Below, piece after piece: positions 8,661 to 39,061 of a DNA stretch of 64,000 nt. The stretch covers positions 3,392,001 to 3,456,000 of the forward strand of contig OZ242320.1 in NCBI GenBank assembly GCA_965208125.1. The letters are read 5' to 3'. This DNA is from Candidatus Latescibacterota bacterium (GTDB taxonomy: Bacteria; Latescibacterota; UBA2968). The translations under genes and the position numbers were made by a program. Position 1 is the first letter of the stretch; every line of letters begins with the position of its first letter. Below the pieces are notes generated by a model, which was not told where the DNA came from, did not search any database, and worked only from the letters and a program-made list of their open reading frames with translations.

Positions 8661-8681
8661 CTATCTGTTCAGGTCAGTCCT

Positions 8682-9149
8682 TTAATAACGTCTGTACCTG
8701 TCGTTGTAATAGTAGGGATAGCCATAGCCATTGAAGGTGCTGAATCCAAATTCGATGCGAATATTGGGTTTGGGCTGATACAAAAGACTGACGTTGGGAA
8801 CGACGACTTGAACGCCGCCCGATGAAGTCGATCCGTAGCGCGTATTGCTCGACATTTGATTGACCAGGCCAACTTGCGCTCTGACGATGAGCGGTTTGGA
8901 TATCTGGTAGGTGATGTCGTTGAGATAATACTGGTTCAAGCCACCGCCGTATCCCGAACTGTAACTGATTCCAATGGTGTGGTTAAATTTGAGTTTTTTC
9001 AGGTCGAACAAACCGCTGGTGGTTTTTAACCCATTTACAAGGTTTTCACCTGCGAGCGGGATTTTGTTTTGCGGCTGAATGCCAATGTCTGCCCGTGCCT
9101 GTGTCGCAATCAAGGCTATAACAGCAAGTGTACAAATCCATTTGTGCAT
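8682..9149 (-). CDS. Hypothetical exported protein, beta-strand rich
   Basis: Signal peptide (ATQARA), GGGGG RBS, own promoter and terminator. Confidence 0.75.
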   Translation of the reverse strand: MHKWICTLAVIALIATQARADIGIQPQNKIPLAGENLVNGLKTTSGLFDLKKLKFNHTIGISYSSGYGGGLNQYYLNDITYQISKPLIVRAQVGLVNQMSSNTRYGSTSSGGVQVVVPNVSLLYQPKPNIRIEFGFSTFNGYGYPYYYNDRYRRY

Positions 9150-9175
9150 GTGTAGCCCCCTTTTCTCTATAATAC

Positions 9176-9204
9176 AGAATACGGAAACTGAGGTGCGATG
9201 TCAA
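9176..9204 (-). promoter_or_regulatory. Sigma70-type promoter
   Basis: TTGACA-17 nt-TATTCT on the minus strand upstream of 9149. Confidence 0.6.
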
Positions 9205-9279
9205 GTGTTCTGTTTTCTTAGACACCTGAGCATATCTGTGTGTTCCACAATAGAAATTGCGCTTGAAAGAGGACTATTT

Positions 9280-10401: not shown

Positions 10402-10414
10402 GAATGTTGTTCCC

Positions 10415-11686: not shown

Positions 11687-11710
11687 TAGAAAGGTTGTAG
11701 ATATCCTCTC

Positions 11711-20949: not shown

Positions 20950-20983
20950 AGTTCGACGCGTGGTTGAACAGAAAGGTATAGTT

Positions 20984-22036: not shown

Positions 22037-22047
22037 GGCGATAGGTA

Positions 22048-23508: not shown

Positions 23509-23523
23509 GATCAGAAGCCTTTC

Positions 23524-23551
23524 TTCTGCGTTTATCTGCGTTCATCTGCGG
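23524..23551. repeat. Short 10-bp-period repeat (ATCTGCGTTY)
   Basis: ttctgcgttt atctgcgttc atctgcgg read directly. Confidence 0.6.
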
Positions 23552-23732
23552 ATAGTTCTTTTCGATAATAAACCGATCTTTGCGGTATTTCGCAATCTCA
23601 GATTTGCCCTTGATAGATGCACATATAGTCACTATATTATATCACCTTTTATTCTCCTCCCCTGAGCTGTTTTTCCTTCCCCGCATGTCTTTTCTGTTAT
23701 CTTCACCTTCCAAACAAGGGTAGGAATATATT

Positions 23733-25613
23733 ATGGCAACGGCAATAAAATCGCGCACTTCCAATGCTACACAACTCGATTTGCTCTCGCAACCGAGGAC
23801 CAATGGGAAAACCAATGGCAAGAAAAATGGTGCCCATAATTACGACGAGAGTAAGATCAAAACCCTTTCATCGCTCGAGCATATTCGGTTGCGCACGGGT
23901 ATGTACATTGGGCGGCTCGGCTCGGGTACCGATCCCGACGACGGTATATACGTTTTGCTCAAGGAGGTTGTGGATAATGCCGTCGATGAATTTATTTCGG
24001 GTTTTGGCACAAAAATCGATGTGACTATTGACGCCAATCACGTCAGTGTGCGCGACTATGGGCGCGGCGTTCCGCTGGGCAAAATTGTCGAATGCGTTTC
24101 TGTGATCAATACCGGTGCCAAATACAACGACGATGTTTTCCAATTTAGCGTGGGCCTCAATGGCGTGGGTAGCAAAGCGGTCAACGCGCTTTCTACTGAT
24201 TTTCGCGTGGTGGCCTATCGCGATGGCAGGTACGCCGAAGCCCGCTTTACGCGCGGGAAACTCATTGGCGAAAAAAAGGGGAGGACTCGGGAACCAGATG
24301 GCTCCCTTTTTGAGTTCACGCCCGATCCTGAGATTTTTGAGGAATACGATTACAATTTCGAATACGTTGAGCGCCGCATGTGGAACTACGCCTGCCTCAA
24401 TAGCGGTCTCACGCTCGTTTTTAACAAACAGAAATTCGTCTCCAGGCGCGGCTTGCTCGATTTTCTCAGCCGCGAGGTCGATGATTCGGCGCTTTATGAA
24501 CCCGCGTATTACAAGGGGCAATATCTCGAATTTGCATTTACCCATACGTCCAATTATGGGGAAAATTATTTTTCTTTTGTCAATGGGCAATACACTATTG
24601 ACGGTGGTACGCATCAAAGTGCTTTTCGGGAGGGTATTTTAAAAGGCGTCAATGAGTTTTACAAGAAGAATTACAGTGGCGTGGATGTGCGGGAATCTAT
24701 CAATGGCGCTGTTGCAGTCAAGCTCAAAGAACCCGTTTTTGAGTCGCAAACAAAAAACAAACTCGGCAATACCGAAGTGCGCTCGTGGATTGTTTCTGAA
24801 ACGCGCAGTGCAGTGGTCGATTTTTTGCACAAGAATACCACGGCGGCACAAAAGCTTCAGGAAAAGATCAACCACAATGAGCGCCTGCGGAGAGAACTCA
24901 ACGATGTTAAGAAAAAGGCAAAGGAAGTCGCCCGCAAAGTCTCCATCAAAATCCCGCATTTCAAGGATTGCAAATATCATAAAGGCGATAAAAAACGCGG
25001 CAATGAATCTACTATTTTTATTACCGAAGGTCCATCTGCTGCCGGGTCTATGGTTGCCGCGCGGGATGTGGAGACTCAGGCTATTTTTGGTCTGAAGGGC
25101 GTGCCTCTCAATGTATTTGGAAAAACAAAAGCCGCAATTTACAAGAATGAAGAACTCTACAATCTCATGACGGCTTTGGGTATTGAAGACAGCGTTGAGA
25201 ATCTCCGTTTTAACAATGTGGTTATTGCCACTGATGCCGATTACGATGGTTTCCATATCCGCAACCTGCTGATGACTTTTTTCCTCAATTACTTCGAAGA
25301 ACTCGTTACTTCTGGTCATGTCTATATTCTGGAGACGCCAATTTTTCGCGTGCGGAATAGCCGTGAGACGCGCTATTGTTATAGCGAAAAAGAACGCAAT
25401 CAGGCCGTTGCAGATTTGCGAAATCCCGAGGTTACGCGCTTCAAGGGGTTGGGGGAGATCTCTCCCGGTGAATTTGGACAATTCATCGGAGAGGACATGC
25501 GTCTGATCAAAGTCGGCGTGCGCGCGCTCGCCGAGGTTCCGACTACCCTCGAATTTTACATGGGAAAGAATACACCTGACCGCAGAGATTATATTGTGGA
25601 GCATTTGATTTAG
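23733..25613 (+). CDS. parE: DNA topoisomerase IV subunit B
   Basis: GHKL motifs EVVDNAVDE, DYGRG and GLNGVG; TOPRIM motifs TEGPSA, ATDADYDG and RFKGLGE; short non-gyrase type. Confidence 0.92.
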   Translation: MATAIKSRTSNATQLDLLSQPRTNGKTNGKKNGAHNYDESKIKTLSSLEHIRLRTGMYIGRLGSGTDPDDGIYVLLKEVVDNAVDEFISGFGTKIDVTIDANHVSVRDYGRGVPLGKIVECVSVINTGAKYNDDVFQFSVGLNGVGSKAVNALSTDFRVVAYRDGRYAEARFTRGKLIGEKKGRTREPDGSLFEFTPDPEIFEEYDYNFEYVERRMWNYACLNSGLTLVFNKQKFVSRRGLLDFLSREVDDSALYEPAYYKGQYLEFAFTHTSNYGENYFSFVNGQYTIDGGTHQSAFREGILKGVNEFYKKNYSGVDVRESINGAVAVKLKEPVFESQTKNKLGNTEVRSWIVSETRSAVVDFLHKNTTAAQKLQEKINHNERLRRELNDVKKKAKEVARKVSIKIPHFKDCKYHKGDKKRGNESTIFITEGPSAAGSMVAARDVETQAIFGLKGVPLNVFGKTKAAIYKNEELYNLMTALGIEDSVENLRFNNVVIATDADYDGFHIRNLLMTFFLNYFEELVTSGHVYILETPIFRVRNSRETRYCYSEKERNQAVADLRNPEVTRFKGLGEISPGEFGQFIGEDMRLIKVGVRALAEVPTTLEFYMGKNTPDRRDYIVEHLI

Positions 25614-25623
25614 AGGATTAAAA

Positions 25624-27525
25624 ATGGCTTATATCGACAAGTTATTTGACCAGTATTTTTTAGAACACGCTTCTTATGTCGTGAAGGACCGGGCGATTCC
25701 GGACATTGACGATGGTCTCAAGCCCGTACAGCGCCGCATTTTACACGCGCTCAAAGAGCAGGACGATGGAAAATTTCACAAGGTAGCCAATGTCGTGGGA
25801 CAGACGATGAAATACCACCCCCACGGCGATCAGTCGATTTACGGCGCGCTGGTTCATCTGGCGAACAAAGATATGTTTATCGACAAACAGGGCAATTTCG
25901 GCAATATTTATACCGGCGACGAAGCCTCGGCTGCGCGTTATATCGAATGCCGATTGACCCCGCTCGCCAAAGATGTGTTGTTCAATCCGGAAATTACCGA
26001 ATACATCGAATCCTACGATGGTCGCAATAGCGAACCCGTTGTTTTTCCGGCGAAAATTCCCGTGCTCCTCGCGCAGGGTACCGAGGGTATTGCGCCGGGC
26101 ATGACCACGCGGGTATTGTCCCACAATTTGATCGAATTGTTGCAGGCACAAATTGCCTATCTCCAGGGGGAGGATTTTCAGGTCTTTCCCGATTTTGCGA
26201 CGGGTGGTTTTGTCGATGTGACCGAGTACGCCGATGGCAATGGCAAAGTGCTCGTGCGTGCCAAACTCGATACCAAAAATTCCAAACGGATTGTCGTGCG
26301 CGAATTGCCTTTTGGATCTACGTCTGACTCTCTCATCGCTTCGATTGAAGGTGCAGCCCGAAAAAACAAGCTCAAAATCGCGGGTATTAGCGATTATACG
26401 GGTGAAGAAGTCGAGATTGAAATTCGCCTTGCCCGAGGTGTGCATACCAAAGATACGGTGGATGCGCTTTACGCTTTTACCGACTGCGAGCAATCTATCA
26501 GTGTCAGTGCTCTCGTTATCAAGGATAATCGTCCCCATATCGCCACGGTGAGCGATATTCTCAAACACAATGCCGACCGATTGGTCGATATTCTCACGGC
26601 AGAGCTTAAAATTGAGCAGAGCCAGGTGCGGGACAGGTTGCACGCCAGAACCCTCGAACAGGTTTTTATTGAGAATCGCATTTACAAGGCAATTGAGGAA
26701 GTCGCCGATTCCAATGCGATGCACGAGGCGATACGCACGGGGCTTGAGCCTTTTTTCAGTTCAATTAGACGCCAAGTTACGGCAGAAGATCTCGATACGC
26801 TTTTACAAATTCCCATTCGGCGCATTTCGCTTTACGACATCACGAAAGCGAAAAAGGAAATGCGTGGGATGCGTGCGCGGCTCAGAGAGATCAAGACCAA
26901 TCTTGAGAATATCACGGGCTTTACTATTGATTTTCTGGAATATCTGATTGATCAATACAAGGACAAGTACCCCCGTCGCACCGAGGTCACTTCTTTTGAT
27001 CAGGTAGATGCACGCGAAGTGGCACAGCGCAATCTCAAGTTGCGCTATGATAAGAAGACGGGCTATCTCGGTTATGATGTCAATGGCAGCACGCTTATGG
27101 ATGTGTCGCAATACGACCGCGTGCTCGTGATTCGAAAAAATGGCACTTATTCTCTGCACGAAGCCCCCGACCGTCTCTTTGTGGATAAAGGTATGCTATT
27201 TTGCGATTTTGTCGATTCCGAACGGGTGTACACGGTTATTTACCGGGATAAGAAGACCAATTATCCCTGTATCAAACGCTGTAAGCTGGACACATTTATT
27301 CTGAATAGAGGATATGAACTCGTGCCACCGGGATGCCGATTGCTCAAGCTCACAACCGATCGCGATGTCGAGGTTCACGTATCGTATAAACCCAAACCCC
27401 GCCTGCGTATCCTCAATGAAGAATTTGCGATCGAAGACTATGCGGTTCGCGGCAAGACCGCCAAAGGCATGCGCCTATCAGCGCGCGAGGTCAAAAGCGC
27501 CAAATTTGTAAAGCCTAAAGTTTAA
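25624..27525 (+). CDS. parC: DNA topoisomerase IV subunit A
   Basis: DGLKPVQRR, YHPHGD and SAARYIE (catalytic Tyr) motifs; short C-terminal domain without a GyrA box. Confidence 0.92.
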   Translation: MAYIDKLFDQYFLEHASYVVKDRAIPDIDDGLKPVQRRILHALKEQDDGKFHKVANVVGQTMKYHPHGDQSIYGALVHLANKDMFIDKQGNFGNIYTGDEASAARYIECRLTPLAKDVLFNPEITEYIESYDGRNSEPVVFPAKIPVLLAQGTEGIAPGMTTRVLSHNLIELLQAQIAYLQGEDFQVFPDFATGGFVDVTEYADGNGKVLVRAKLDTKNSKRIVVRELPFGSTSDSLIASIEGAARKNKLKIAGISDYTGEEVEIEIRLARGVHTKDTVDALYAFTDCEQSISVSALVIKDNRPHIATVSDILKHNADRLVDILTAELKIEQSQVRDRLHARTLEQVFIENRIYKAIEEVADSNAMHEAIRTGLEPFFSSIRRQVTAEDLDTLLQIPIRRISLYDITKAKKEMRGMRARLREIKTNLENITGFTIDFLEYLIDQYKDKYPRRTEVTSFDQVDAREVAQRNLKLRYDKKTGYLGYDVNGSTLMDVSQYDRVLVIRKNGTYSLHEAPDRLFVDKGMLFCDFVDSERVYTVIYRDKKTNYPCIKRCKLDTFILNRGYELVPPGCRLLKLTTDRDVEVHVSYKPKPRLRILNEEFAIEDYAVRGKTAKGMRLSAREVKSAKFVKPKV

Positions 27526-27596
27526 AATAAAAAAACGACCCCAGAAGAGTCGTAAAGAAAAAAGATGTCTATGGCATTGTAAGACGGAGAAATTTC

Positions 27597-29060
27597 ATGG
27601 AAGTTGCTGAATTAACACTTGAAAGTGCGCCAACTCTGGAAGATGAGTGCAGAAACGAAAGCCACACACTGCACAGAGACCTGTTAGAAAAGAAATACGA
27701 GAGCCTGATTACCCACAATCCGAAATTAACAAGAACCCTTGTCAGCTTTCAGGCGAATAAAAACACGCCGTATTATCGATGGTTTAAGTACAAAGAAGGC
27801 TTCTCGGCGCAGATGGTTCAGTATCTTCTGAACACATTGACGGAGAAGCGGGGCGCATTGTTGGATCCGTTCTCAGGAACAGGAGCGGCTTTATTTGCCT
27901 CGCAGGAATTTGGATGGGAAGCTACGGGTATTGAGCTTCTTCCTGTAGGATGTGCGATTACCGAAGCCAGACAAGCAGCCGAGCAAGTAGATATTGTACA
28001 GTTAAAAAAAGAAATTGAGGCCTTGGATAGCATTGATTTTTCGACGATCAAATCCGATAGCCCGATCCAACATATTGCGATTACGGAAGGTGCGTTTTCT
28101 CGGCAGACGGAAGACCAATTGAATGGTTATTTAACTTATTGTGAAAATCAGATAGAAGATTCTCATATTAAGACACTATTGCGCTTTGCCGCTTTTTGTA
28201 TTCTGGAAAGGATCAGCTATACCAGGAAGGACGGTCAATATCTCCGCTGGGATTATCGCGCTGGCAGGACGAGAGTGAAGTCGAAATTTAACAAGGGTAA
28301 AGTCTATACTTTCAATGAAGCACTTCAGCAACAGCTCAATTTAATGGTTGATGATCTTCTCCATGAGGACATGGATCTTTTTAAAAAGGGAAATGTGCAA
28401 AAAAAAGAACAGAACATCCGGCTGATTCAAGGATCCTGCCTTGAAGAACTGTGTAAATTCAGTAAGGAGAATTTTAACTTTATTTTGACGTCTCCGCCTT
28501 ATTGTAACCGCTATGATTATACGCGTACTTACGCGCTTGAACTGGTATTTCTCAATAAGAACGAAGAGGAAGTCAAGCACCTGCGACAACAAATGCTATC
28601 CTGTACTGTCGAAAACAAAGAGAAAATTGAATCGTTGAAGACGCAATATGCGGACATGAAAAGAGAAGACTTTTTGCAGAAGGCTATTTTTGCTTTTGAG
28701 AACCATAATGCACTGCAAGAAGTCCTCTATTGGCTGAACGTATATAACAGGGAAGGCCAGTTGAATAATTCGAATATTCCGCGAATGATCGCAAATTACT
28801 TCCTCGAAATGGCTCTGGTCATATTTGAAATGAGTAGAGTGCTGAAGCCGGGTGGAAAGGTCGCGATGGTGAACGACAATGTCAGATATGCGGGAGAAGA
28901 GATTCCCGTTGATTTAATTCTTTCTGACTTTGCTGAAGCAGCGGGCTTATCCACAAGGAACATCTGGGTTCTGGGAACTGGCAAGGGGAATAGTAGCCAA
29001 CAGATGGGCAAGTACGGTCGCGCAGAATTGCGGAAATGCGTGTATGTTTGGGGTAATTAG
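27597..29060 (+). CDS. N4-cytosine DNA methyltransferase, M.AvaI/M.BsoBI-like
   Basis: VSFQANK...RWFKYKEGFS, DPFSGTG, TSPPYCNRYDYTRTYALEL and GKGNSSQQMG...LRKCVYVW motifs. Confidence 0.88.
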   Translation: MEVAELTLESAPTLEDECRNESHTLHRDLLEKKYESLITHNPKLTRTLVSFQANKNTPYYRWFKYKEGFSAQMVQYLLNTLTEKRGALLDPFSGTGAALFASQEFGWEATGIELLPVGCAITEARQAAEQVDIVQLKKEIEALDSIDFSTIKSDSPIQHIAITEGAFSRQTEDQLNGYLTYCENQIEDSHIKTLLRFAAFCILERISYTRKDGQYLRWDYRAGRTRVKSKFNKGKVYTFNEALQQQLNLMVDDLLHEDMDLFKKGNVQKKEQNIRLIQGSCLEELCKFSKENFNFILTSPPYCNRYDYTRTYALELVFLNKNEEEVKHLRQQMLSCTVENKEKIESLKTQYADMKREDFLQKAIFAFENHNALQEVLYWLNVYNREGQLNNSNIPRMIANYFLEMALVIFEMSRVLKPGGKVAMVNDNVRYAGEEIPVDLILSDFAEAAGLSTRNIWVLGTGKGNSSQQMGKYGRAELRKCVYVWGN

Positions 29061-29147
29061 CAGTTGAGTAAGATGAGTTACGTAATCTAATGGGAAAGCA
29101 AGAAATAAAAACAAGCATCCGTTACGCCAAAATTAAGGAAAATTTTG

Positions 29148-30050
29148 ATGCGGGTCTTTGATATTTTTTCGAAACGACAGAAGCGACAGCGGGGCGAAAT
29201 TCCCGACGTGTATCAGTACGAGACCATTCCTCAAGAATTGCGGGTTCAAGTTGTCCATATCTTGCGGGATGCCCTCGGAGAAGGTAGCGAAGCTGATCCG
29301 TACAAGTTCATCCATGAGACCTTATGCCGTGAATATGGCAAGTTCACACTTGGTGAATCCTATGATTCTGACCAAGAGGCAGTCCTCAACTTCTTTCTTC
29401 GGACAAAAGAAATAGAAAAAGCAATTGATGTTATTGAACTTACATTTCAATATATAGATCGTTACGTCCGTGAAAATGCACATTACTTCTATGAACAAAA
29501 GCTTACACCTGACCAGGCGATTGATGAGCTAAATCATCGGTTCCATGAACACGGAGTAGGATATCAGTATGAATCTGGTTTTATCGTTAGGGTTGATTCT
29601 CATTTGATCCACGCTGAAGTAGTGCGGCCTGCATTGACTATGCTTTCCAATCCGATGTACAAAGGCGCGAATACAGAATTTCTGAGCGCACACGAACACT
29701 ATCGAAAGAGAAGATACAAAGAATGCTTAAATGAATGTCTCAAGTCATTTGAGAGTTGCATCAAGGCGATTTGCGAAAAAAGGAGATGGCCTTACAATGA
29801 CAGCGATGGTGCCAGTCGCTTGGTTAGTATCGTGTTCGAGTGCGAATTGATCCCAACGTTTATGCAATCACACTTCTCAGCACTGAGGAACACATTAGAG
29901 GCGGGCGTTCCCACTGTTCGCAATCGCCTGTCGGGTCACGGGCAGGGAAGAGCAGAAGTACCCGTTCCAGAATCCATCGCCGGATACGCACTTCACTTGA
30001 CCGCATCAAACATCCTTTTATTGGCGCGAGCCGATGAGGAGATGAAATAA
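29148..30050 (+). CDS. AbiJ-NTD4 plus HEPN (STM4504/CBY_0614-like) abortive-infection-type protein
   Basis: N-terminal IFSKRQK...DVYQYETIP..LRVQ; C-terminal RNRLSGH (Rx5H) HEPN-like motif. ATG at 29148 after AAGGAA. Confidence 0.8.
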   Translation: MRVFDIFSKRQKRQRGEIPDVYQYETIPQELRVQVVHILRDALGEGSEADPYKFIHETLCREYGKFTLGESYDSDQEAVLNFFLRTKEIEKAIDVIELTFQYIDRYVRENAHYFYEQKLTPDQAIDELNHRFHEHGVGYQYESGFIVRVDSHLIHAEVVRPALTMLSNPMYKGANTEFLSAHEHYRKRRYKECLNECLKSFESCIKAICEKRRWPYNDSDGASRLVSIVFECELIPTFMQSHFSALRNTLEAGVPTVRNRLSGHGQGRAEVPVPESIAGYALHLTASNILLLARADEEMK

Positions 30051-30059
30051 GGATTATAT

Positions 30060-31166
30060 ATGCCCGAAAAGAAAAAACAGCATTATGTCCCTGTCTTCTA
30101 TCTAAAGCGTTTTTCATCGGATGGGAGAAGTATCGGGCTGTGGAATATCCAAGCTAAAAAAAAGGTACTTTCAGCGAGCTTAAAAAGCCAATGTTGTGAA
30201 AATTTTTTCTACGAACAGGGCGAAAATATAGAGAATTCGCTCAGCAATCTTGAAAGTCCTGCATCAAAAATCCTTAGATGTATTGATCGGGACAGCTCTC
30301 TGCCTCCCGCCTGGCATCAAGACTATGAAATTTTAAGGCGGTACATTTTTACGCAGCTTTTTAGAACTAAGTATATGACAGACGAAATAAATAGTATGTT
30401 AGATCAATTCAAGGGCACGGTTACACAAAATAATCCTCATCCATTACACATAAATGGACATACAAAAGAAGAATTTGAGGAGATCGTAGAAGAATTTAAG
30501 GAGAATACCCCGGAATTTTCTATAGTTGTTGCTTACTCTGATAGGGTGAAAAAGACAACTTCAGATTTAGAGAGTAAATTGTTAATTAACAAGACTAAAG
30601 TAGAATTTTTAACGTCTGATCATCCTGTTATTTTATACAACCAATTACTGAATTTTATGTCATCTTTTGGGATACCTGGTTCTCGTGCGGGATTGCCTGC
30701 AAAAGGACTTCAAGTTTTCTTTCCTATTAGCCCAACGAAGTTATTGTTGTTTTATGACCCTACCTCATATCAGGTTGGTCATAGTCAAGGGAGAAACGTA
30801 ACAATACGTCATAAGCAGGAGGTTTTAGATATAAATGTTCTTCAGATGTGCTCTGCCCATGAAAACATTTATTTTAAAAATGAAACTTTTGACATCAACA
30901 CTTTATACAATCGAGCCAAGCCATATATGAGAAGAATGCAAAATGCTTTTAATAAGCAAAACTTTAATGTCCAAAAAGAAAAGGAACGTGGGCTTATCCC
31001 CATGCATGGCTCAAGACCAGATATAAACACCGATTTGAAATCGTCCTTTATTCGTATAATGCAGGACGCCAAGCTTTACCGAACGAATCTCAAAAAGAAA
31101 ATAGAGGCTGGTCACAGTATTCCGGCTATTCTCCTACGAGAATCTTTGGGTAATTTAAGCATATAA
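30060..31166 (+). CDS. DUF4238 domain protein
   Basis: KKQHYVPVFYLKRFS N-terminus; FLTSDHPV and FPISP motifs. Confidence 0.85.
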   Translation: MPEKKKQHYVPVFYLKRFSSDGRSIGLWNIQAKKKVLSASLKSQCCENFFYEQGENIENSLSNLESPASKILRCIDRDSSLPPAWHQDYEILRRYIFTQLFRTKYMTDEINSMLDQFKGTVTQNNPHPLHINGHTKEEFEEIVEEFKENTPEFSIVVAYSDRVKKTTSDLESKLLINKTKVEFLTSDHPVILYNQLLNFMSSFGIPGSRAGLPAKGLQVFFPISPTKLLLFYDPTSYQVGHSQGRNVTIRHKQEVLDINVLQMCSAHENIYFKNETFDINTLYNRAKPYMRRMQNAFNKQNFNVQKEKERGLIPMHGSRPDINTDLKSSFIRIMQDAKLYRTNLKKKIEAGHSIPAILLRESLGNLSI

Positions 31167-31215
31167 TTTCCGGATATATTGGATTCCCAACAATCCTATA
31201 TAAGGAGTTTATCGA

Positions 31216-32628
31216 ATGAAAACAGAATTTTATCCCATTTCCTTATCAGCGATATCCATGAAGGTTGCACAAAAAAATGGCAGACGAAGAAAATCTCAAA
31301 AGGAAGGTCAACCTTTTTTATTTGAACATCAATTCGTGGATAACACAAAAAAGATTAAGAATGAGTTTGGAGAGGAGATTATTCGAGTGGATGGCGATAT
31401 CCCTGTGAATTTACCCGTCAATGATGGGGATAGATTTCTGTTTATCAGTTACGACCAGAGTATCCTAACACATGGGTTGCACAAGTATCCAGCCAAATTC
31501 TTTCCAGAATTGCCTCGCTGGTTGATTCAACGATATTCTAAAAAGAAAGACCTCATACTTGATCCCTTTTCTGGGAGTGGGACCACAAATGTTGAAGCTC
31601 TGCGATTGGGCCGGAACTCTGTTGGGATTGATGTAGATCCCTTTTCCCGCTTCCTTTCAAAAGTCAAAGTAACGCCTTTAGATGCGGCAGAACTCAAATC
31701 GTCTCAAGAATCTCTTTTACAGGCAGCCTTGAATTACCAACCCTCACTGGTTGCAGAATCGGATATACCCGACTTCCCATATAGGGATAACTGGTTCAAT
31801 CGAGAGATTACCCTCGAACTGGCCTATTTAAAAAAGTGTATTGATTCCCTTGATACAAGTCAGGATATCAAAGACTTCTTCAAAGTTTGTTTTTCCTCGA
31901 TCATCCGCTCGGTGTCCAATGCCGACGATAATTGCACGCGAACTGTGATTCGTAAAACATTGGGCAAAAAGGTATGTCCTGCCGATGCACTGAAAAAATT
32001 TGCAGAATCTGTACTGGTCAATGTGCCTAAGATGGTAGAATTTTCTCAAAATGATCTCAACGGTATAACGACGCACTTCCCAGAAGACATGGACGCGAGA
32101 AATATAAAGTACGATGCAGAGGCTTTTGATTTGGCTTTGACGTCTCCTCCATATGCCAATGCAGTAGATTATCCGAGAACCCACCAGTTGGAAATTTATT
32201 GGTTGGGATTTGCTGAAGGCACATTGACGCCGTTGAAGAAAAAAAACGTGGGCACGGAAAGTGTTTCATCTCGTGATTACCAGGTACAACATCAGATTGG
32301 TGTAAAGGATGCGGATACCGTCATTTCTAAAATTTTTGAAGTAGATCCAAGGAGAGCCTATATTGCGTTCAAATACTTAGAAGACATGAAAAAGAATCTG
32401 GCTGAAGTGTACAAGGTTTTGTGTAAGGGGGGGAGATACATCATCGTTGTGGGTAATAATCGGATGCGCGGTCAGCTATTCGAAAGTTGGAAGTATCTCA
32501 TGACACTCGCTGAAGACATCGGGTTTGATGTTGAAAATTACTTTGGATCAGAGATCATAAAGCACTTTATCAAAGTTCCTAGAGGCGAACGCATCAATAC
32601 CGACTGGATTTTGGTGCTAAAAAAGTAA
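31216..32628 (+). CDS. Second amino-DNA methyltransferase (likely m4C)
   Basis: [18 protein letters not shown] and [11 protein letters not shown] motifs; TAAGGAG RBS. Confidence 0.9.
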
Positions 32629-32646
32629 GAACAGAGAGGGAAAAAT

Positions 32647-33165
32647 ATGGCAACGCGTGAAGATAAAGGGCGACAAGCGTCAATAGATGGCTTTGCCCAT
32701 GAGCATATTGTTGTTGGAATTCTAATGAAAAAATATCGGAACGTTTCATTGGTTGATTTACCTCTGTCACCTTACGATGTAATCATTGTATTACCAAGCG
32801 AAGAACTTGGACGCGAAGAGATTATTCGCGCTCAAATAAAAACAGCAACTCAATCTATTAGCTTTACCGGTGGTAGTAGAGGCGGTGTGGATAGAGAATA
32901 TAAATCTGGCGTTAAAGAATACCGACAATCAACAAAAACTTCAGATGTTGTCATTGGTATTCACCCGACAGACGATAACTCATTTGAACTCTATTTCGTT
33001 CCCACTGTTCTAATTGAACGTTTGGATCAAAACAGTATTTCCATTAACAAAATTCAAGGTCTGAAGGAAAACTATGATGTTTTAGAAAATTGTAAGAACA
33101 AGGATCTGATCATCGAGAAGTGCCAAGAATATGGAATTCTTGAGCGTTCACTATGGGATTCTTAA
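32647..33165 (+). CDS. Small PD-(D/E)xK-fold endonuclease, paralog A
   Basis: GFAHE...PYD...AQIK catalytic pattern; 18 bp after the methyltransferase; aligns with 33321..33812. Confidence 0.75.
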   Translation: MATREDKGRQASIDGFAHEHIVVGILMKKYRNVSLVDLPLSPYDVIIVLPSEELGREEIIRAQIKTATQSISFTGGSRGGVDREYKSGVKEYRQSTKTSDVVIGIHPTDDNSFELYFVPTVLIERLDQNSISINKIQGLKENYDVLENCKNKDLIIEKCQEYGILERSLWDS

Positions 33166-33320
33166 GCGTTCACATTTATTGAGATCTCCTACACTATTCA
33201 CTAAAGCAGGGTAACTCTATAAAAAATAGACTGTTACTTTGCTTCTGAAATTATCAACCATTTTATCCATATTTCCCGTAAGGAACGGATAAATGACGAT
33301 TATGTTCTGGAGCTTCGAAA

Positions 33321-33812
33321 ATGAGCGATACAAACGACAGAGCTGAAATAGGCAAACGGTCGTCAATAAAGGGATTTGCTAATGAAAGTCGGTTGTTAGC
33401 AGCACTACTTGACCGCGGTTATAACGCTTCTCGCGTTGACCTGCCACATTCTACTTATGATATTGTAGTAGAAATCGCAACTCGTGATGTAATTCGGATT
33501 CAGGTAAAAACAGTATCTCCGTTAAAGTCAATACCCTTTACAAGTGGAGGACGCGGTGGCGTAGATAGAACGTACAGATCGGACGTGAAAACCTATGTTC
33601 ACAACACCGAAACATGCGATATTATTGTCGGGGTAGAAAGTCTTGCATCTAACGGAGATCAGGAAATCAATTTTTATTTTGTACCGACCTTATTTATTGA
33701 AAAACTTGGCCAAAGAAGCATAACGATTAGAAAAATCTCACAAGCGAAAAATAATTGGGAGATTTTAGACCGATGTAGGGAAATGAGATTTGTGTATGAG
33801 ATGTTTGACTGA
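33321..33812 (+). CDS. Small PD-(D/E)xK-fold endonuclease, paralog B
   Basis: GFANE...TYD...IQVK; shares RGGVDRxY and YFVPT with paralog A. Confidence 0.75.
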   Translation: MSDTNDRAEIGKRSSIKGFANESRLLAALLDRGYNASRVDLPHSTYDIVVEIATRDVIRIQVKTVSPLKSIPFTSGGRGGVDRTYRSDVKTYVHNTETCDIIVGVESLASNGDQEINFYFVPTLFIEKLGQRSITIRKISQAKNNWEILDRCREMRFVYEMFD

Positions 33813-33842
33813 CTTTTTATGTTTGTCAAGTATATAATCCCC

Positions 33843-33936
33843 TAATTTTTTTGAAGTTCTCTTTGGATTTTGAGGTCAGCGGCCATTTTGCTTAACTGTG
33901 CATCATCATCTGTTTTATCAGAGATATTTTCTCGTA
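33843..33936 (-). pseudogene. Degenerate fragment of the 87-aa gene at 38637..38900 (direct repeat copy 1)
   Basis: Hand alignment to 38711..38803 gives 8 mismatches and 1 indel over 94 nt. The minus strand reads RENISDKTDDDAQLSKMAADLKIQRELQKN*. Confidence 0.85.
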
Positions 33937-33987
33937 CTTCAGCAACGGACAGGATTGGACATTACTGTAAATTAGGAAATCTGAGAT

Positions 33988-35535
33988 ATGGATATATTCT
34001 GGAATTCTGGAGAAAGAGAGAAAATCCAGGGATTGGACTTCCTGAATGTCCGAAGCATTGACCAGGCGATGGAAAAAAAGTGGGTTGCTGGCATCACGAC
34101 GATTGCACCCCGAGCTCGATATCTTTCCTTGCTCCCTTGGGCATTATCATTATACTATGAAAGAGAATTAGAAAAAGCCCAAACGAGTGTTCAGTACGAC
34201 TATCAGCATTTGAGTCATTTTTTGAGCCGCTTGGAAGTCATCATCCTTGCGGCTTCTTTTCTTACAAAACCTGGTGAAAGTATTCCCAAAACCACGAATA
34301 TCTTAGGTCGAGACATACACGAAAACTTACTCTTGCAGCTACAAGATTCGGGGTATGTAGAATTGGAACCGAATGGCGGTGGGGCGATTGCTCAGACATA
34401 TGTCATGCCCTGTCAGGGGTTTGATATCCTGGAGAGCGGTGCCCCTATCAAAGTGCTTGAGCGAGGACAAAAGCTATATGATGTAAAGCAGCGATTGCTT
34501 GAAGGATGTCCTTTTATTGACAATCTCTTCACCGGAGGGAAAGTCACAGCCAAAGATATTCTCACCTGGCGAGATCATTTTTCTATCACGGGATTGCTAT
34601 CGGATGCTGGGAACAAAGAAAAGAATTTGCTTATATCGTTTTTTTTAACACCTCAGAATCCGCAAAATAAGCCTCATTACCAACGGTTCCGCGGCACATT
34701 AAAATGGATCCTGATGCGGGCTAGAGAGAATCCTTCATCTCCTGGGGATCTGATTGCTGAGGAATACAGTCAGTGTCTTGGAAATGGCTCAAATGCGAAT
34801 TTAGAAGCTGCTCGGGTTGCCTGGATGAATTACGAACTGCGTCGCCGAGGGCATTGGGGGCTTGAACTACTTCTCTCAGCTTTCAGTGACACACTCGCAA
34901 GGCTTGTCACTGCCAATCTGGATGAGGTTATCAGTGAGTGGATAGAAGAAGATGAAATTCCGGAAGGTCTGCGTAGTGCCATAGCAATCCATAATACACC
35001 TTGGGAATTGTCTTGGAATGAATTTCTTGCATCAATTCCTGAAAATCTGTTGCTACATAAAACGCCATCAACCGGTGATTCCAGGAGATTTTCCTCACAT
35101 ATACAAGCCTTTTTAGGATTCTTGCTGGTTGTGTCTTGCTGGCGCCATTCACAACCTTGGCGTGAGAATGAATTGCTTCAGACTTTCGAGAAACGACCTC
35201 TGGATTTCGCATTTGAAATTCTGGATCAGGCTGAAGGGAAGTCTATTGTTGAGGTTCTGTCTCAGCTTGTAGGTGATTGCGCCGTTGCACCTCATCTGCA
35301 ATCGACATGGCGTAAGATGGGCAATGGGCAGAAATGCTCACTCAGATTTTTTTGGGACGGAGAAGCCTTTAGATCAACGGGAACCATCACCAAGCCTGGA
35401 TTTAGCGGCGAAAGATTAGGCAGTGTAATGCGTATGCTGGCAGACTTAGGTCTGCTTACTTCCCCACAGACAGGGAGGTATACCACTACAGAAGCAGGCC
35501 ATGCCGTGCTTGCTGAATTGGAAAAGATAGGATGA
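33988..35535 (+). CDS. Uncharacterised 515-aa protein with DUF6361-like N-terminal motif and probable C-terminal winged helix
   Basis: GLDFLNVRSIDQ...AGITTIAPRARY motif; C-terminal RL....MLADLGLL....Y.TT.AG. Stop overlaps the next start (ATGA). Confidence 0.7.
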   Translation: MDIFWNSGEREKIQGLDFLNVRSIDQAMEKKWVAGITTIAPRARYLSLLPWALSLYYERELEKAQTSVQYDYQHLSHFLSRLEVIILAASFLTKPGESIPKTTNILGRDIHENLLLQLQDSGYVELEPNGGGAIAQTYVMPCQGFDILESGAPIKVLERGQKLYDVKQRLLEGCPFIDNLFTGGKVTAKDILTWRDHFSITGLLSDAGNKEKNLLISFFLTPQNPQNKPHYQRFRGTLKWILMRARENPSSPGDLIAEEYSQCLGNGSNANLEAARVAWMNYELRRRGHWGLELLLSAFSDTLARLVTANLDEVISEWIEEDEIPEGLRSAIAIHNTPWELSWNEFLASIPENLLLHKTPSTGDSRRFSSHIQAFLGFLLVVSCWRHSQPWRENELLQTFEKRPLDFAFEILDQAEGKSIVEVLSQLVGDCAVAPHLQSTWRKMGNGQKCSLRFFWDGEAFRSTGTITKPGFSGERLGSVMRMLADLGLLTSPQTGRYTTTEAGHAVLAELEKIG

Positions 35536-38300
35536 GAACGGATTTAATTGGCAAAATGCAACACTTGGGAGATTTGGAGAATGCGATTGTGCTCACTCAC
35601 AACATTGATTGCATCTTCTTGGAGTCTATCCTTCTGCCAACTTTGAGGCAGGCTGGTAACCCCCTGCTTACCGTATTTGCTGAGAGCACCTGTGCGATCG
35701 ATACGTTTCAACGTCAGAGTCTCTATCTTTCCGAACTGGGACGCAGGTATCGTCTGGTCTCTGTCAACCTTCCTCATCCCTTTCGATTTCATCCCAAAGC
35801 TGTGTTACTTGCCGCACGAGAAAGTGCCCACCTGTTTATTGGAAGCGGAAACATAGGTTTTGGGGGATGGCGAGAGAATGGAGAGATTTGGGTAGAATAT
35901 GTGCTGGATGAAAAAAATCAACAAGCAGCACCCGCTTTTGCCTTCTTTCAGGATTACCTGAAACAGATATTGAGGATTGCCCCCTTTACAGAGACCATAG
36001 AGCATGAAATTGTAGATGCCTTTTCGCGGGAGCGAAAACAGTGGGTCTCTTATTTGGCAGAAAGAGGTGGGCTGATTGGTCGAGCAGGAAGTGGCCCGAG
36101 TCTGATAGACTGTTTGGACGACGTAATTTCGAGTGAACCGGTTGATTGTCTCTGGATCTGTGCTCCTTATTATGATATTCGGGCAGAAGCCCTGAACGCT
36201 TTAAAAGAAAAGTTCGCGGCAAAGGAGACTCGGGTGCTCTTGCAGGAGAAAGAAACCAATTTTACTACCGAAGCTGCGGAAGCACAGACAAAGGATGTTC
36301 GGCTTAAATCCGTGAACTACAATGGAAATGATGGTAAACCCAGATTCTTGCATGCCAAATTCTATGGTCTTGAAAGAAAAAGGCGAGTTACTGTTATTCT
36401 TGGAAGTGCCAACTGTTCGAATGCGGCCTGGATGATTCCCGGCAATCGGGGAAACGCGGAACTGGTGGCGATTAAGGAGATGAGCAAGAAAGAGTTCGAG
36501 CAACATATTCTGCAGGAACTCCATATAGCAGACGAACCACCAGAGCTTCAGTCTCACCAAGAGCGGGATGCTGTGTCTGAACCGGAATCGTATGCGTTGC
36601 GAGCCTTGGCTGCGAGTTTTGACAGATTTGAAGGTATCAATGTGCGGTTTCAGAAAGATGTAAATATTGAAATTTCTAGATGTTTGATCGACAACCAACC
36701 CGTTGAATTCAAGATCGAGAACGAAAGTGAACTCACAGCGAATCCTCTTCCTCAGACCATACATAATGGTAAGGGCAACCGGGTTTTGCAGTTGGAAGGA
36801 GAGGGCTCACTAGGGAAGATCTGCTCGAATCCCATCTGGATAGACCACGAATTTGAATTGCGCACGACCTCTAAAGAACGCACACTGGTTGAGACCATAC
36901 AACAGAATGTAAAGCAGGATGCTTGGGGACTGCCAGCTTTCAATGAAATTTTAAGATTGCTACAAGATCACCTGGACTATTTAACAACACATAAGACATC
37001 GGGTGGTGGACAGAACGGGCGTAGCGGTTCTGAGAGAGTCATTCGATTCACACGCGAGGATGTATTTGCCGATGATTTCGGACTCCTCCCGGAAACGTCA
37101 ACAGTTTCTGATATTGCTATTCCGAATCAAGTAGACGGATTGAAGGGTTTGCTGCTCAGATATTTTGGTTTCGAGTGGATTCAAGACGAGGATCCATCGG
37201 AAGAGGAAACGATGGATGATGAAGAAGCTGAAGATGACTCAATCAGTCCAGACGAACTGGAATCACGAAAGCTGGAGCGATCCCTTGTTGGACCATCTCC
37301 AAAAGACTCTCATCCTGATAATGACCCGGTGAAGCAAGAGAAAAACCGTCAAATAACTCTCCAGTTTTTTGAGTCGATCATCAATACCATTTCTGATGAG
37401 AGTTATTTACTGCAAAGATCGCCGGATCTGATTGCTAAAGATTTAGCGATCATCGCTATACTGATGACTTCTGCAATAAATGAAGAAGCACCGAGTTTGG
37501 GAATAAACTGGCTCACTGAAGATGAATACTTCGAATTCACTCGCCGGGTTTGGAATGTATTTTTTTTCAAATTTATACAGTCTGAAACGGATTCTTCAAG
37601 ACAATACCACGGTTATCTTGACAGACGTTATCAGGAATCCGAAGATCCACACGCTTTCATCCAGTCTTTTGCATCTACCGATTTTGCCGCTGCCATTGCT
37701 GTGTGGGTGTTGGCGAATTTGAAAGACAAGCCTTCTCCGCGAGAAGCACAATTAGCTCTGATACAAATTTCTACAGTTGCTCGTTTTCCCTGGCTGTGGG
37801 GCGCAGATACTTTTTCTGATCTAGCTCCTTTAATTAAACGTCTTTTAGTCCATACCAAAGTTCTGCCATTAGAAAAACAGGAAGATTTCGGACGCTATCT
37901 CACAAAATGGCGTGAATTTATCCAAGTTGGAAATGCAATCGGTGTTTTTCAAGAAAAATTCGAGGATTTTGAACCCGAAAATGTAAAGGACATACTTGAG
38001 CGGAGTGAAATACAGAGGGGAGAGCTTCTTTGGCAGGGAGGATCAGGTCTTTGTGTCGCCCAGAAAGATTGCCTAAGGTTACCTAAAAAAAAGATTGATG
38101 TTTTGAGTTTACGGAGTCATGGTAGCAGTCCGAAGAAGACTTTCTATGCTGACTACCTAATTCCAGTCGGAGCGCTTTTGGATACGCCTCAAGGTAGGAA
38201 AACGAAGCCATTGCCCGAGGCTGTTCCTAAGATTCTGAATCGTTTTGTAAGAAAATTCATGCAACCTTTATCTCTATTGACTGAAAGAGATATTGTATAG
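35532..38300 (+). CDS. 922-aa phospholipase D-superfamily (nuclease-like) protein with long C-terminal extension
   Basis: Two half-sites, FHPK...IGSGN...NGE and LHAK...GSAN...NAE, followed by an acidic tract and a helical region. Confidence 0.8.
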   Translation: MRTDLIGKMQHLGDLENAIVLTHNIDCIFLESILLPTLRQAGNPLLTVFAESTCAIDTFQRQSLYLSELGRRYRLVSVNLPHPFRFHPKAVLLAARESAHLFIGSGNIGFGGWRENGEIWVEYVLDEKNQQAAPAFAFFQDYLKQILRIAPFTETIEHEIVDAFSRERKQWVSYLAERGGLIGRAGSGPSLIDCLDDVISSEPVDCLWICAPYYDIRAEALNALKEKFAAKETRVLLQEKETNFTTEAAEAQTKDVRLKSVNYNGNDGKPRFLHAKFYGLERKRRVTVILGSANCSNAAWMIPGNRGNAELVAIKEMSKKEFEQHILQELHIADEPPELQSHQERDAVSEPESYALRALAASFDRFEGINVRFQKDVNIEISRCLIDNQPVEFKIENESELTANPLPQTIHNGKGNRVLQLEGEGSLGKICSNPIWIDHEFELRTTSKERTLVETIQQNVKQDAWGLPAFNEILRLLQDHLDYLTTHKTSGGGQNGRSGSERVIRFTREDVFADDFGLLPETSTVSDIAIPNQVDGLKGLLLRYFGFEWIQDEDPSEEETMDDEEAEDDSISPDELESRKLERSLVGPSPKDSHPDNDPVKQEKNRQITLQFFESIINTISDESYLLQRSPDLIAKDLAIIAILMTSAINEEAPSLGINWLTEDEYFEFTRRVWNVFFFKFIQSETDSSRQYHGYLDRRYQESEDPHAFIQSFASTDFAAAIAVWVLANLKDKPSPREAQLALIQISTVARFPWLWGADTFSDLAPLIKRLLVHTKVLPLEKQEDFGRYLTKWREFIQVGNAIGVFQEKFEDFEPENVKDILERSEIQRGELLWQGGSGLCVAQKDCLRLPKKKIDVLSLRSHGSSPKKTFYADYLIPVGALLDTPQGRKTKPLPEAVPKILNRFVRKFMQPLSLLTERDIV

Positions 38301-38621
38301 GTAATCTATGGTGGCTGTTGGACTTGCCATGATGTGTCTTCTCAGAAATTTTTTCGTTTCTTCGGAACCAATAGCATTTCTGGCTTTCTCTGTCAGCCCC
38401 AATGCCCCGATGAGGATTTCTATAATCTCTTGATCTCTTTCCGCTGCCTGGAGCAAATTCTCTAAATCCGGTCCGATGTGTGCGAGCTTTTTCTGGGCTT
38501 CAATTATTCTGCTGACAAATGGTGATGCTGATGTGAACTGCCTCCTGGATTGTTGGCGAAATCCTTCGGCAGTTTCCGCTGGGGTGGTTGTGATTTCGGA
38601 TGGATGATAAATGGGCTGCAT
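38274..38621 (-). pseudogene. Truncated AvaI/BsoBI-family type II restriction endonuclease (N-terminal part only)
   Basis: TTT.AE...GF......SPFV and LIGALGLTEKA...IDYL match my recollection of the BsoBI/AvaI N-terminus. Similarity ends where the convergent PLD gene ends. Confidence 0.6.
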
Positions 38622-38636
38622 CTGATGTTCCTTGCA

Positions 38637-38900
38637 TTATAGAGGCGAGAGATTTTTCTTTATATCGAACGGCGTCTTACATTCTCGTTCTGTGGTTGAG
38701 AACTCATTTTTAATTTTTTGAAGTTCCCTTTGTATTTCGGGATCAGCGGCCATTTCGCTTAACTGTGCATCACCATCTGTTTTTTCAGAGATATTTTCTC
38801 GTATGCGGTGGCTTACACGCTCAATAAGGAGCAATTGTTCATCCAGGGACAACCGACTGATATTTTCTTCTAATTCAGAAAGAAGGGATGGTGCAGACAT
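38637..38900 (-). CDS. Small helical hypothetical protein, antitoxin-like
   Basis: AAGGAG RBS; LSLDEQLLLIE...MAADPEIQREL pattern. The antitoxin role is inference. Confidence 0.65.
   Translation of the reverse strand: MSAPSLLSELEENISRLSLDEQLLLIERVSHRIRENISEKTDGDAQLSEMAADPEIQRELQKIKNEFSTTERECKTPFDIKKNLSPL
38711..38803. repeat. Direct repeat copy 2 (partner of 33843..33936)
   Basis: About 90% identity by hand alignment. Confidence 0.85.
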
Positions 38901-38913
38901 GGTTGTTCTCCTT

Positions 38914-38947
38914 AAATCATCCCGCTCAAAATGGGCGCGGATGATTT
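38914..38947. promoter_or_regulatory. Inverted repeat next to the RBS of the 87-aa gene (operator or terminator)
   Basis: AAATCATCCCGC-tcaaaatgg-GCGCGGATGATTT. Confidence 0.5.
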
Positions 38948-39061
38948 TTCTTTTACAACATCAAATTGTCTATTAACTTCCTGACCTACACGGCGACATG
39001 AAGTATAGAAAGAATTTAAAAAAAAACAAGGCCAGATGTCCTTTCAAACTGGAGAACCTCG

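Follow-up and report, generated by a model that had tools for sequence, protein, structure and literature searches.

A helicase-less gene pair from a Latescibacterota genome as a candidate phospholipase D-based defense module related to Azaca

The three-gene system Azaca, whose name reportedly comes from the journal version of the Millman study and does not occur in its preprint version, consists of ZacA (DUF6361), the phospholipase D (PLD)-type protein ZacB, and the helicase ZacC. ZacABC protects against T4 and cleaves T4 DNA, and the system acts on T-even phages, the DNA of which is cleaved in an ATP-dependent manner (10.1101/2025.07.10.664194). Other PLD nucleases of bacterial defense, as generally described and as partly documented in PMC12191111, carry one HxK motif per chain, form dimers, and bear fused sensor domains (B3-like, helicase, or glycosylase-like). 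Here, we compare these systems with two adjacent genes, A and B, in a 64,000-nucleotide stretch (referred to as the window) of a Candidatus Latescibacterota bacterium (GenBank assembly GCA_965208125.1; contig OZ242320.1, positions 3,392,001 to 3,456,000 of the forward strand). The A-B pair is most likely an unnamed PLD-based defense module that is related to Azaca and acts without ATP.

Gene A (window positions 33988 to 35535; 515 amino acids [aa]) encodes a putative partner or sensor subunit, and gene B (35532 to 38300; 922 aa) encodes a putative PLD effector with two HxK motifs, the C terminus of which carries a long extension. The two genes are co-directional, and all of their features given below are on the plus strand. 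A first-pass annotation of the sequence had described two same-strand genes with an ATGA stop/start overlap, which the open reading frame (ORF) calls and the letters at 35529 to 35538 (AGGATGAGAA) confirm: the TGA of A and the ATG of B are merged as ATGA at 35532 to 35535. Together with a 51-nucleotide (nt) leader and an 18-nt trailer, the genes form a plus-strand cassette at 33937 to 38318. Counts of promoters and terminators were no higher than the shuffled expectation (10 versus 9.6 and 7 versus 5.4, respectively).

A search of 5.8 billion proteins returned 513 homologs of B at an E value of ≤0.001. The best 120 of these are all 852 to 939 aa long and have PF13091 as their sole Pfam domain. 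The same search returned 68 homologs of A, none carrying a Pfam domain, and the A profile matched 1,126 cluster representatives among 1.84 billion proteins (E ≤ 0.001). The source names given for B homologs are always "hypothetical protein" or "HKD family nuclease," and no B homolog above 1,614 aa was found, which is weak evidence against fused forms. A scan of 185,579 species genomes (one genome per species) yielded 56 B loci, which their record titles assign to Latescibacterota, Acidobacteriota, Gemmatimonadota, Myxococcota, Thermodesulfobacteriota, Planctomycetia, Chloroflexi, Bacillota, and KSB1, as well as to alpha-, beta-, and gammaproteobacteria and Sulfurimonas or Arcobacteraceae. An A-like sequence lies immediately 5' of B in 52 of the 56 loci; the four others either miss their upstream sequence (L024 and L043) or contain a truncated or degraded B (L017 and L042), and further loci are visibly decayed (L007, L050, L051, L054, and L055). 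Where both ORFs were called (45 loci), the overlap between the stop of A and the start of B measures 4 nt at 23 loci, 1 nt at 7 loci, and 8 or 11 nt at 4 loci; a gap of 2 to 14 nt separates them at 9 loci, and the arrangement is aberrant at 2. No third conserved gene accompanies the pair, and beyond A and B, no cluster of ORFs within 10 kb occurs in more than 4 of the 56 loci. The first-pass annotation had called the pair helicase-less and had named a helicase adjoining every homolog as the finding that would overturn this description. The homologs do not show this pattern: the pair is kept with no shared third gene and with no ZacC found in the 56 loci or the source genome, and the lack of a helicase is a stable trait of the family.

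The distribution of the family is patchy. B is present as a single copy in the source genome, in 5 of 168 genomes of the phylum (source genome counted), and in 3 of the 20 further genomes examined from the genus, 2 of which keep just 3' remnants. These remnants comprise the last 130 to 150 codons of B, with 83% identity and one internal stop in one case (G493:C1:5318275-5318706) and 93% identity in the other (G480:C1:3392295-3392681), and they are leftovers of lost cassettes. A collection of phages contained no match to B and a collection of plasmids contained no match to A. Matches in plasmids were limited to the PLD core and to 10 records, all named "hypothetical protein," one of them from the haloarchaeon Halorussus.

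For the comparison with Azaca, six true DUF6361 loci from 401 Pseudomonadota genomes (6/401 positive) served as references, all of which contain ZacA (388 to 439 aa), ZacB (615 to 711 aa), and ZacC (1,023 to 1,129 aa) in a row. Residues 15 to 314 of B aligned with ZacB at an hhalign probability of 97.3% (E = 2.7e-11), covering both HxK sites, and residues 17 to 110 of A aligned with residues 30 to 107 of ZacA at 94% (E = 1.4e-7) when the N-terminal 130 residues were compared. For whole A against the whole ZacA profile, the probability was 63%, and neither A nor B resembles ZacC (hhalign probability, 0.1). A C-terminal "SGxRL...DL" likeness between A and ZacA, conceived by eye, was dropped (hhalign probability, 0.2). 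Among the 950 ORFs of all loci, hidden Markov models (HMMs) built from six sequences each matched A homologs only (17; ZacA HMM) and B homologs only (44; ZacB HMM), and the ZacC HMM gave three weak generic helicase matches in three of the 56 loci, none of which is a ZacC. The source genome likewise lacks ZacC, the one match being a 40-residue motif ~800 kb away.

The scores of the pair stay far from those of Azaca itself. The PADLOC ZacA model matches A at an E value of 0.022 (residues 35 to 66; 12.3 bits) and the ZacB model matches B partially at 1.5e-18 (residues 217 to 362; 65 bits); a true Azaca set scores 281, 374, and 834 bits versus 12 to 17 and 44 to 65 bits for the A and B families. 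No member of the A family (0/22) reaches the 25-bit cutoff of PF19888 (DUF6361), with 2/22 matching at an E value of about 0.08, and over five whole pair-carrying genomes, the sole PF19888 match was a separate true ZacA in one of them. The earlier description of A as DUF6361-like thus stands for an N-terminal module of ~95 residues (94% probability) and falls for A as a member of the Pfam family. A single 337,993-bp scaffold of Mesorhizobium loti (L045 and L068) carries both a canonical ZacABC and an A-B pair, ~180 kb apart. Judged by these profile comparisons, A-B is a distant relative of the ZacA-ZacB core of Azaca, and the link is real but partial. Because of the score gap between the references and the family, the lack of ZacC at the 56 loci, and the presence of both systems on one scaffold, we conclude that A-B is not a decayed Azaca but a stable lineage of its own, which lacks the helicase and has two modules in common with Azaca.

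Two PLD half-sites had been predicted in B near 35790 and 36351, and both were verified. The first (35790 to 35885) comprises FHPK from residue 86 (nt 35787; H87 at nt 35790), GSGN at residues 104 to 107, and N116/E118; the second (36351 to 36461) comprises LHAK from residue 273 (H274 at nt 36351), GSAN at residues 291 to 294, and N308/E310. All of these motif residues (H87, K89, G104 to N107, N116, E118, H274, K276, G291 to N294, N308, and E310) are invariant in 27 B sequences with 31 to 92% identity. Four residues past each Lys stand Ala94 and Glu281, so that the canonical Asp of the HKD motif is missing from both half-sites, as the first-pass annotation had stated. PLDc_2 was detected in 27/27 members of the B family. 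In the structure model of B (predicted score in the local distance difference test [pLDDT], 79.5; predicted template modeling score [pTM], 0.72), residues 1 to 342 (35532 to 36557) form a two-lobed, single-chain alpha/beta PLD fold with both HxK motifs, which matches PLD superfamily structures at Z scores of 15 to 21. The closest solved fold is that of yeast and human Tdp1 (Z = 21.4; 324 to 325 residues aligned; root mean square deviation [rmsd], 4.1 to 4.5), represented by 1q32_A (324 aligned; rmsd, 4.1) and 1mu7_A (325 aligned). In Tdp1, as in B, the half-sites follow an H-K-N pattern without the HKD Asp. Bacterial PLD, vaccinia F13, PssA, PLD4, and PPK rank below Tdp1, and a Foldseek search with the B model returned 5nwa_A (E = 4.7e-7).

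The remainder of B is less readily assigned. Residues 353 to 442 (36588 to 36857) form a predicted beta-sandwich of the Ig/FN3-like type, a weak assignment with Z scores of at most 7.8. Residues 485 to 594 (36984 to 37313) form a linker with a pLDDT of <50 over most of its length (residues 485 to 506, 516 to 529, and 548 to 594), which is presumably disordered. This linker holds the acidic tract DEDPSEEETMDDEEAEDD (residues 552 to 569; nt 37185 to 37238), and the segment aligned to residues 545 to 598 is net acidic in 27/27 homologs, its sequence itself not being conserved. The first-pass annotation was thus right about the presence of an acidic tract and wrong in placing it at the C terminus, as it lies in a mid-protein linker; its proposal that the tract may have a regulatory function or imitate DNA is conjectural. 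Residues 599 to 922 (37326 to 38297) contain a family-specific helical domain followed by a small beta domain, with W674, W754, W793, and W834 invariant. No Pfam match or fold was assigned to this region, which the fold searches barely covered, and the ESM Atlas gave no usable match for residues 445 to 922. No conserved Walker A motif was found in the alignment of 27 B homologs. For A and B alike, PDB sequence searches with the profiles returned nothing meaningful, no NCBIfam model matched, and no Pfam family was found beyond PLDc_2.

The structure model of A (pLDDT, 88.7; pTM, 0.88) is confident outside residues 1 to 15. The monomer model leaves its N-terminal tail (residues 1 to 10; 33988 to 34017) disordered (pLDDT, 31), and M1, F4, W5, and N6 of this tail show no or almost no variation. 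The ZacA-like (DUF6361-like) module at residues 17 to 110 (34036 to 34317; hhalign values as above) includes GITTIAPRARYLSLLPW. A motif of the form GLDxLxxR...GITTIxxRARY had been noted at first pass; it reads GLDFLNVR...GITTIAPRARY in A, the second part occupying residues 35 to 45 (nt 34090 to 34122), and the longer stretch GLDFLNVR...GITTIAPRARYLSLLPW spans residues 15 to 51. T37, R42, R44, and Y45 of this motif are fixed in the 22 A homologs, in which M1, W5, D17, P50, and W51 are also invariant, as is a C-terminal block of H436, K443, C450, S451, R453, and G458. This block lies within a conserved segment (residues 429 to 464; 35272 to 35379) that forms the second predicted contact surface with B. 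The probable C-terminal winged helix (about residues 466 to 515; 35383 to 35532) is supported by fold matches to PadR-type winged-helix proteins with Z scores of up to 9.7 (5zhc_A; 84 aligned; rmsd, 3.9) and to MarR-type proteins, and weak HTH_45 and Mrr_N matches were seen in 6/22 and 5/22 members of the A family, respectively. For A itself, nothing in Pfam or NCBIfam or among the PDB sequences matched above threshold, and a Foldseek search of the A model against the PDB gave nothing at an E value of ≤0.001. In the ESM Atlas, the nearest named cluster to A was DUF6361 (0.81), which we treated as a lead and no more. A likeness to the recognition domains of FokI and N.BspD6I (Z = 8.1; ~200 aligned; rmsd, >5) was set aside as too weak for a helical protein.

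A model of the complex, computed with custom alignments for full-length A and residues 1 to 445 of B, suggests that A and B probably bind each other, with A placed on the PLD half of B. The complex score was 0.79 (0.81, 0.79, and 0.79 in three runs) versus 0.00 for the best of three controls, with at least 88% of contacts in common among the runs and a partner pLDDT of at least 83. The pass mark, which is reached by 58/80 solved complexes and 2/110 mismatched pairs, is only approximate here given the custom alignments. Residues 1 to 10 of A are predicted to contact B residues 117 to 122, 263 to 275, 288 to 290, and 315 to 329, between the lobes and beside the catalytic residues; the expected error is lowest for A residues 3 to 6 with B residues 117 to 122, 275, 288 to 290, and 325 to 329. 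Residues 429 to 464 of A are predicted to contact B residues 23 to 36 and 54 to 65. Conserved columns are enriched in the interface of both B (19/49 versus 59/396; P = 1.4e-4) and A (11/32 versus 75/483; P = 0.009), although the model used the same alignments, and these tests are not fully independent of it. The ZacA-like module and the winged helix of A fall outside the predicted interface.

The pair had also been placed inside a defense island, and this holds: the cassette lies in a low-GC stretch (0.39 to 0.46 over 27.6 to 39.0 kb, lower than in the flanks) together with genes for a type II methyltransferase (27597 to 29060), an AbiJ-like protein (AbiJ_NTD4 plus DUF7014; PDC-S32; 29145 to 30050), a DUF4238 protein (30060 to 31166), and a second methyltransferase (31216 to 32628). 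These are followed by genes for an unassigned 172-aa protein (32647 to 33165) and a 163-aa ORF with a weak PDDEXK_5 (PD-(D/E)XK-like) match below the Pfam cutoff (33321 to 33812), which, with a methyltransferase, could form a restriction-modification system. The region is a variable hotspot (27526 to 39061) bounded by a conserved gyrA-like gene on one side and by a gene for an aminotransferase on the other. In a sister genome (G406), the left flank (19753 to 27525) and the right flank (from 39062) are syntenic and 92 to 94% identical, and the ~3.6 kb of cargo between them has just the methyltransferase at 27597 to 29060 in common with the window. This sister genome carries its own A-B cassette ~6 Mb from the hotspot.

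The borders of the cassette can be placed closely. Window positions 33936 to 38181 are 95.2% identical to positions 8408 to 12647 of this sister-genome locus (L001), which has no other match to the window in its 22.6 kb, and contigs from other public runs diverge from the window at 33936 and at 38318 (18 nt past the stop of B). The borders at 33936 and 38318 indicate that the mobile unit consists of A plus B alone, and the departure of the L001 copy from the window past 38181 marks the 3' end of B as a recombination-prone border. A 90-nt direct repeat on the plus strand (33847 to 33936) ends at the left border, exactly where the L001-like sequence starts, and is 91% identical to a second plus-strand copy (38714 to 38803) inside a minus-strand ORF (38637 to 38900) that is kept at the same hotspot of the sister genome. 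The repeats look like the footprint of a cargo insertion at the hotspot. They enclose A, B, and a 115-aa minus-strand ORF (38274 to 38621), with no recombinase nearby.

Of the 56 loci, 45 have an intact pair once degraded loci and L001, a near duplicate of the window, are excluded; at these, two genes per side were examined, which gave 84 and 82 proteins. Their domains include ResIII (5), Helicase_C (6), N6_Mtase (4), type ISP (2), Eco57I (2), Mrr_cat_2, McrBC, HSDR_N, BrxL, AbiEii-type AAA_21 (2), and DUF4238, and also resolvase, RepB, DUF932, and transposase. Elsewhere in the window, a 30- to 45-nt element at about 23517 to 23557, between sulfatase and gyrB-like genes, has ~40 copies in the sister genome (84 to 100% identity) and looks like a REP-like dispersed intergenic repeat. 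Downstream of it, positions 23733 to 27525 contain two successive genes: the first is gyrB-like (626 aa), and the second is gyrA/parC-like but just 633 aa long, with a Pfam match that stops at residue 429 and no C-terminal domain detected. Two related genomes preserve this pair of genes, at DNA identities of 92 and 69%.

On the balance of these observations, A-B is fairly likely to be a horizontally moving, heteromeric, NTPase-free two-gene defense module distantly related to ZacA-ZacB. The mechanism that we favor, with similar moderate confidence, is a constitutive A-B complex in which B would cut invading DNA as a single-chain PLD phosphodiesterase. We infer the defense function, DNA as the substrate, the role of A as a sensor, and regulation by the linker. 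The two HxK/N/E half-sites of B, in which the catalytic residue set is intact, would build one active site, and cleavage of invading DNA would proceed via a phosphohistidine intermediate, which is established PLD superfamily chemistry. The tail (residues 1 to 10) and conserved block (residues 429 to 464) of A would clamp the PLD core of B; the free ZacA-like module (residues 17 to 110) and winged helix of A would recognize a target or trigger; and the acidic linker and C-terminal domains of B would probably stand in for the regulatory or targeting role of ZacC.

Several observations weigh against this proposal. In the Azaca preprint, the cutting of T4 DNA in vitro requires all three Zac proteins and the Walker A motif of ZacC, and mutants in conserved ZacA residues are unchanged in complex formation and in vitro cleavage (10.1101/2025.07.10.664194). 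Given this need for the helicase motif, a relative that lacks the helicase may function quite differently. The best structural match of B, Tdp1, is a repair enzyme and not a nuclease. The complex model is limited to residues 1 to 445 of B, and in it the tail of A touches A275, not H274 or K276, and contact lists cannot tell the blocking of an active site from its completion. Many neighbors of the pair are housekeeping or unannotated genes, and the neighbor counts are descriptive, with no matched background. Finally, metatranscriptomic contigs from four runs of two studies match parts of A and B at 90 to 99%, with DNA carry-over being possible. These contigs, from studies labeled sponge and marine metagenome, lie within 33936 to 38661, and their left flank resembles that of L001; the stretch at 33000 to 33827 is uncovered by them and is unusable as a control. 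They are compatible with transcription of a strain variant, and we make no claim of expression.

Alternative explanations share parts of this evidence. If A-B were a nonfunctional remainder of a ZacABC operon minus ZacC, the homology of A's N-terminal module to ZacA and of B's PLD core to ZacB would follow directly, and a loss of activity would be expected, since Azaca cleavage depends on ZacC. We consider this hardly credible, however, because the two-gene layout, intact frames, and invariant catalytic residues persist across many phyla at 27 to 94% identity, ZacC is missing from all 56 loci and the source genome, the sizes of A and B and all sequence outside the shared modules differ from those of ZacA and ZacB, the PADLOC scores (12 to 17 and 44 to 65 bits) are far below those of true ZacA and ZacB (281 and 374 bits), and one genome holds both systems. 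An addiction or toxin-antitoxin-like module of mobile DNA deserves more weight, although it too is rather unlikely. Here, B would be a toxic nuclease and A its inhibitor, and the module would stabilize islands or plasmids or exclude competitors; it could secondarily abort infection, with no direct sensing of phages. The tight start/stop coupling of the genes, the predicted clamping of the catalytic half of B by the tail and conserved block of A, and the mobility of the cassette fit this explanation, as do the resolvase, RepB, and transposase genes among the neighbors, a related three-gene variant on a mobilizable plasmid beside an AbiEii toxin gene, and the decayed 3' remnants in congeneric genomes. 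However, A is large (515 aa) and has a ZacA-like module and a winged helix outside the interface, which exceeds the needs of an antitoxin; the family was not found on plasmids (with A as the query) or phages; and the nearest characterized relative is a defense system that cleaves DNA directly.

The structural resemblance of B to Tdp1 (best match; Z = 21.4), the weak Tyr-DNA_phospho matches in 5/27 members of the B family (best E value, 7.5e-4), and the H-K-N half-sites without the HKD Asp would also suit a housekeeping-type repair or processing enzyme, in which B clears 3' or 5' adducts and A is a DNA-binding adaptor with no immune role. Genes for repair normally belong to the core genome and keep their synteny, whereas this family is patchy (5/168 genomes of the phylum; 56 loci in 185,579 species genomes), sits at different loci in sister genomes and in a variable hotspot of low GC content that also holds Abi and restriction-modification genes, and is homologous to a validated defense system, which makes a repair role improbable. 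Equally improbable, in our estimation, is a variant in which the Tdp1-like B breaks protein-DNA linkages or adducted or modified ends of invaders, with A as an adaptor and with neither ATP nor a helicase; candidate targets would then be phage terminal proteins and relaxase-DNA or topoisomerase-DNA intermediates. A membrane-directed effector role, with B acting on phospholipids or on some other phosphodiester outside the nucleic acids, can be entertained because the PLD superfamily includes lipases and synthases and because the fold matches with Z scores of 15 to 19 include bacterial PLD, phosphatidylserine synthase, and polyphosphate kinase. It appears very doubtful, given that enzymes acting on DNA head the fold matches (Tdp1, and PLD4 in a structure with single-stranded DNA), the relatives by sequence are nuclease profiles of the ZacB and NgoFVII types, a winged helix is present in the partner A, and the secondary-structure readout, which was not a formal test, showed no conspicuous conserved segment of hydrophobic or transmembrane character.

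Set against known systems, the proposed A-B module has no full counterpart: no system in PADLOC-DB v2.0.0 was matched full-length by both proteins, and no description of the pair was found in the literature on Azaca and PLD-type nucleases, whose supplementary tables may list candidates. The modeled PLD half of B has a Tdp1-like architecture, a single-chain pseudo-dimer with two half-sites, although a common fold is no proof of a common substrate. Sequence identity to Tdp1 is 13 to 14%, the Tyr-DNA_phospho score of B (16.7 bits) is below the cutoff of 22, which leaves B outside this family, and Tdp1, which serves in eukaryotic repair, has neither a partner of the A type nor a 580-aa extension. 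With the PLD restriction and defense nucleases (BfiI, NgoAVII/NgoFVII, SauUSI, END nucleases, DISARM DrmC, and Nuc/NucT), B has in common HxK chemistry directed, as proposed here, against foreign DNA. A weak DrmC match to B, RE_NgoFVII matches in 4/27 members, and nuclease fold matches with Z scores of 9 to 12 were found. These fold matches cover one lobe of B only (133 to 145 residues), and B differs from these nucleases in having both half-sites in one chain plus a separate partner protein.

Two further arrangements were compared. PDC-M27, a PADLOC candidate composed of a PLD protein (PDC-M27B) and a ZacC-like helicase (PDC-M27C), was not mentioned in the literature searched; its B model gives a weak partial match to B (E = 2.6e-6; 24 bits; residues 86 to 235) at the level of the PLD motif only, and its C models also match the C-terminal helicase part of true ZacC. 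A matches no PDC-M27 model, and the pair therefore does not belong to this candidate system. On the mobilizable plasmid pDB-1 of Sphingopyxis sp. DBS4 (L086, positions 4448 to 8900), three genes encoding 504, 789, and 191 aa each overlap the next by 4 nt, and the locus adjoins an AbiEii/AbiGii toxin gene. The 504-aa protein aligns with A along almost its whole length (hhalign, 65%; E = 5.9e-5; columns 9 to 514), and the second protein has a B-like PLD core and beta-sandwich (99.6%; E = 9e-24; columns 13 to 442); the differences are the shorter B-like protein, the plasmid location, and the third overlapping gene. The idea that this 191-aa gene is a split-off C terminus of B was rejected (hhalign probability, 0.2).

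Azaca, the nearest characterized relative, resembles the pair in gene order, with the smaller partner gene first and the PLD gene second, in the motif G-T/S-T-I-x-x-R-x-R-Y...PW of the A and ZacA modules, and in the double-HxK core of B and ZacB, including the N-x-E after the second site. Profile matches between the two are specific and run in both directions. It differs in that ZacC is present in all six reference loci and in none of the A-B loci; A has 515 aa versus ~400 for ZacA, with another middle part, a winged-helix C terminus, and an unalignable C-terminal half; B (922 aa) has an Ig-like domain, an acidic linker, and a ~320-aa C-terminal region absent from ZacB; and both proteins score far lower than the family thresholds of PADLOC and Pfam. 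As far as can be read from the sequence, with no conserved Walker A motif in B, A-B could not share the ATP dependence of Azaca. With a ZacA subunit without a known role and a nuclease that depends on a helicase, Azaca is among the less understood PLD defense systems. A-B, which keeps just the ZacA-like module and the PLD core and is stable over many phyla without an NTPase, would be a natural minimal version in which the role of the ZacA-like module and the restraint and release of the PLD nuclease could be probed directly; the complex model names candidate residues to mutate (A residues 1 to 10, including W5, A residues 429 to 464, and B residues 106 to 124). An unannotated family with 513 B homologs thereby joins the candidate defense genes. 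The comparison of Azaca, PDC-M27, the Sphingopyxis type, and A-B suggests one core, the N-terminal ZacA module plus a double PLD, with exchangeable accessories. In a broader reading that we consider improbable, the core would be an ancient minimal immune unit to which a helicase (Azaca and PDC-M27), a small third protein (the Sphingopyxis type), or a fused extension (A-B) was added independently.

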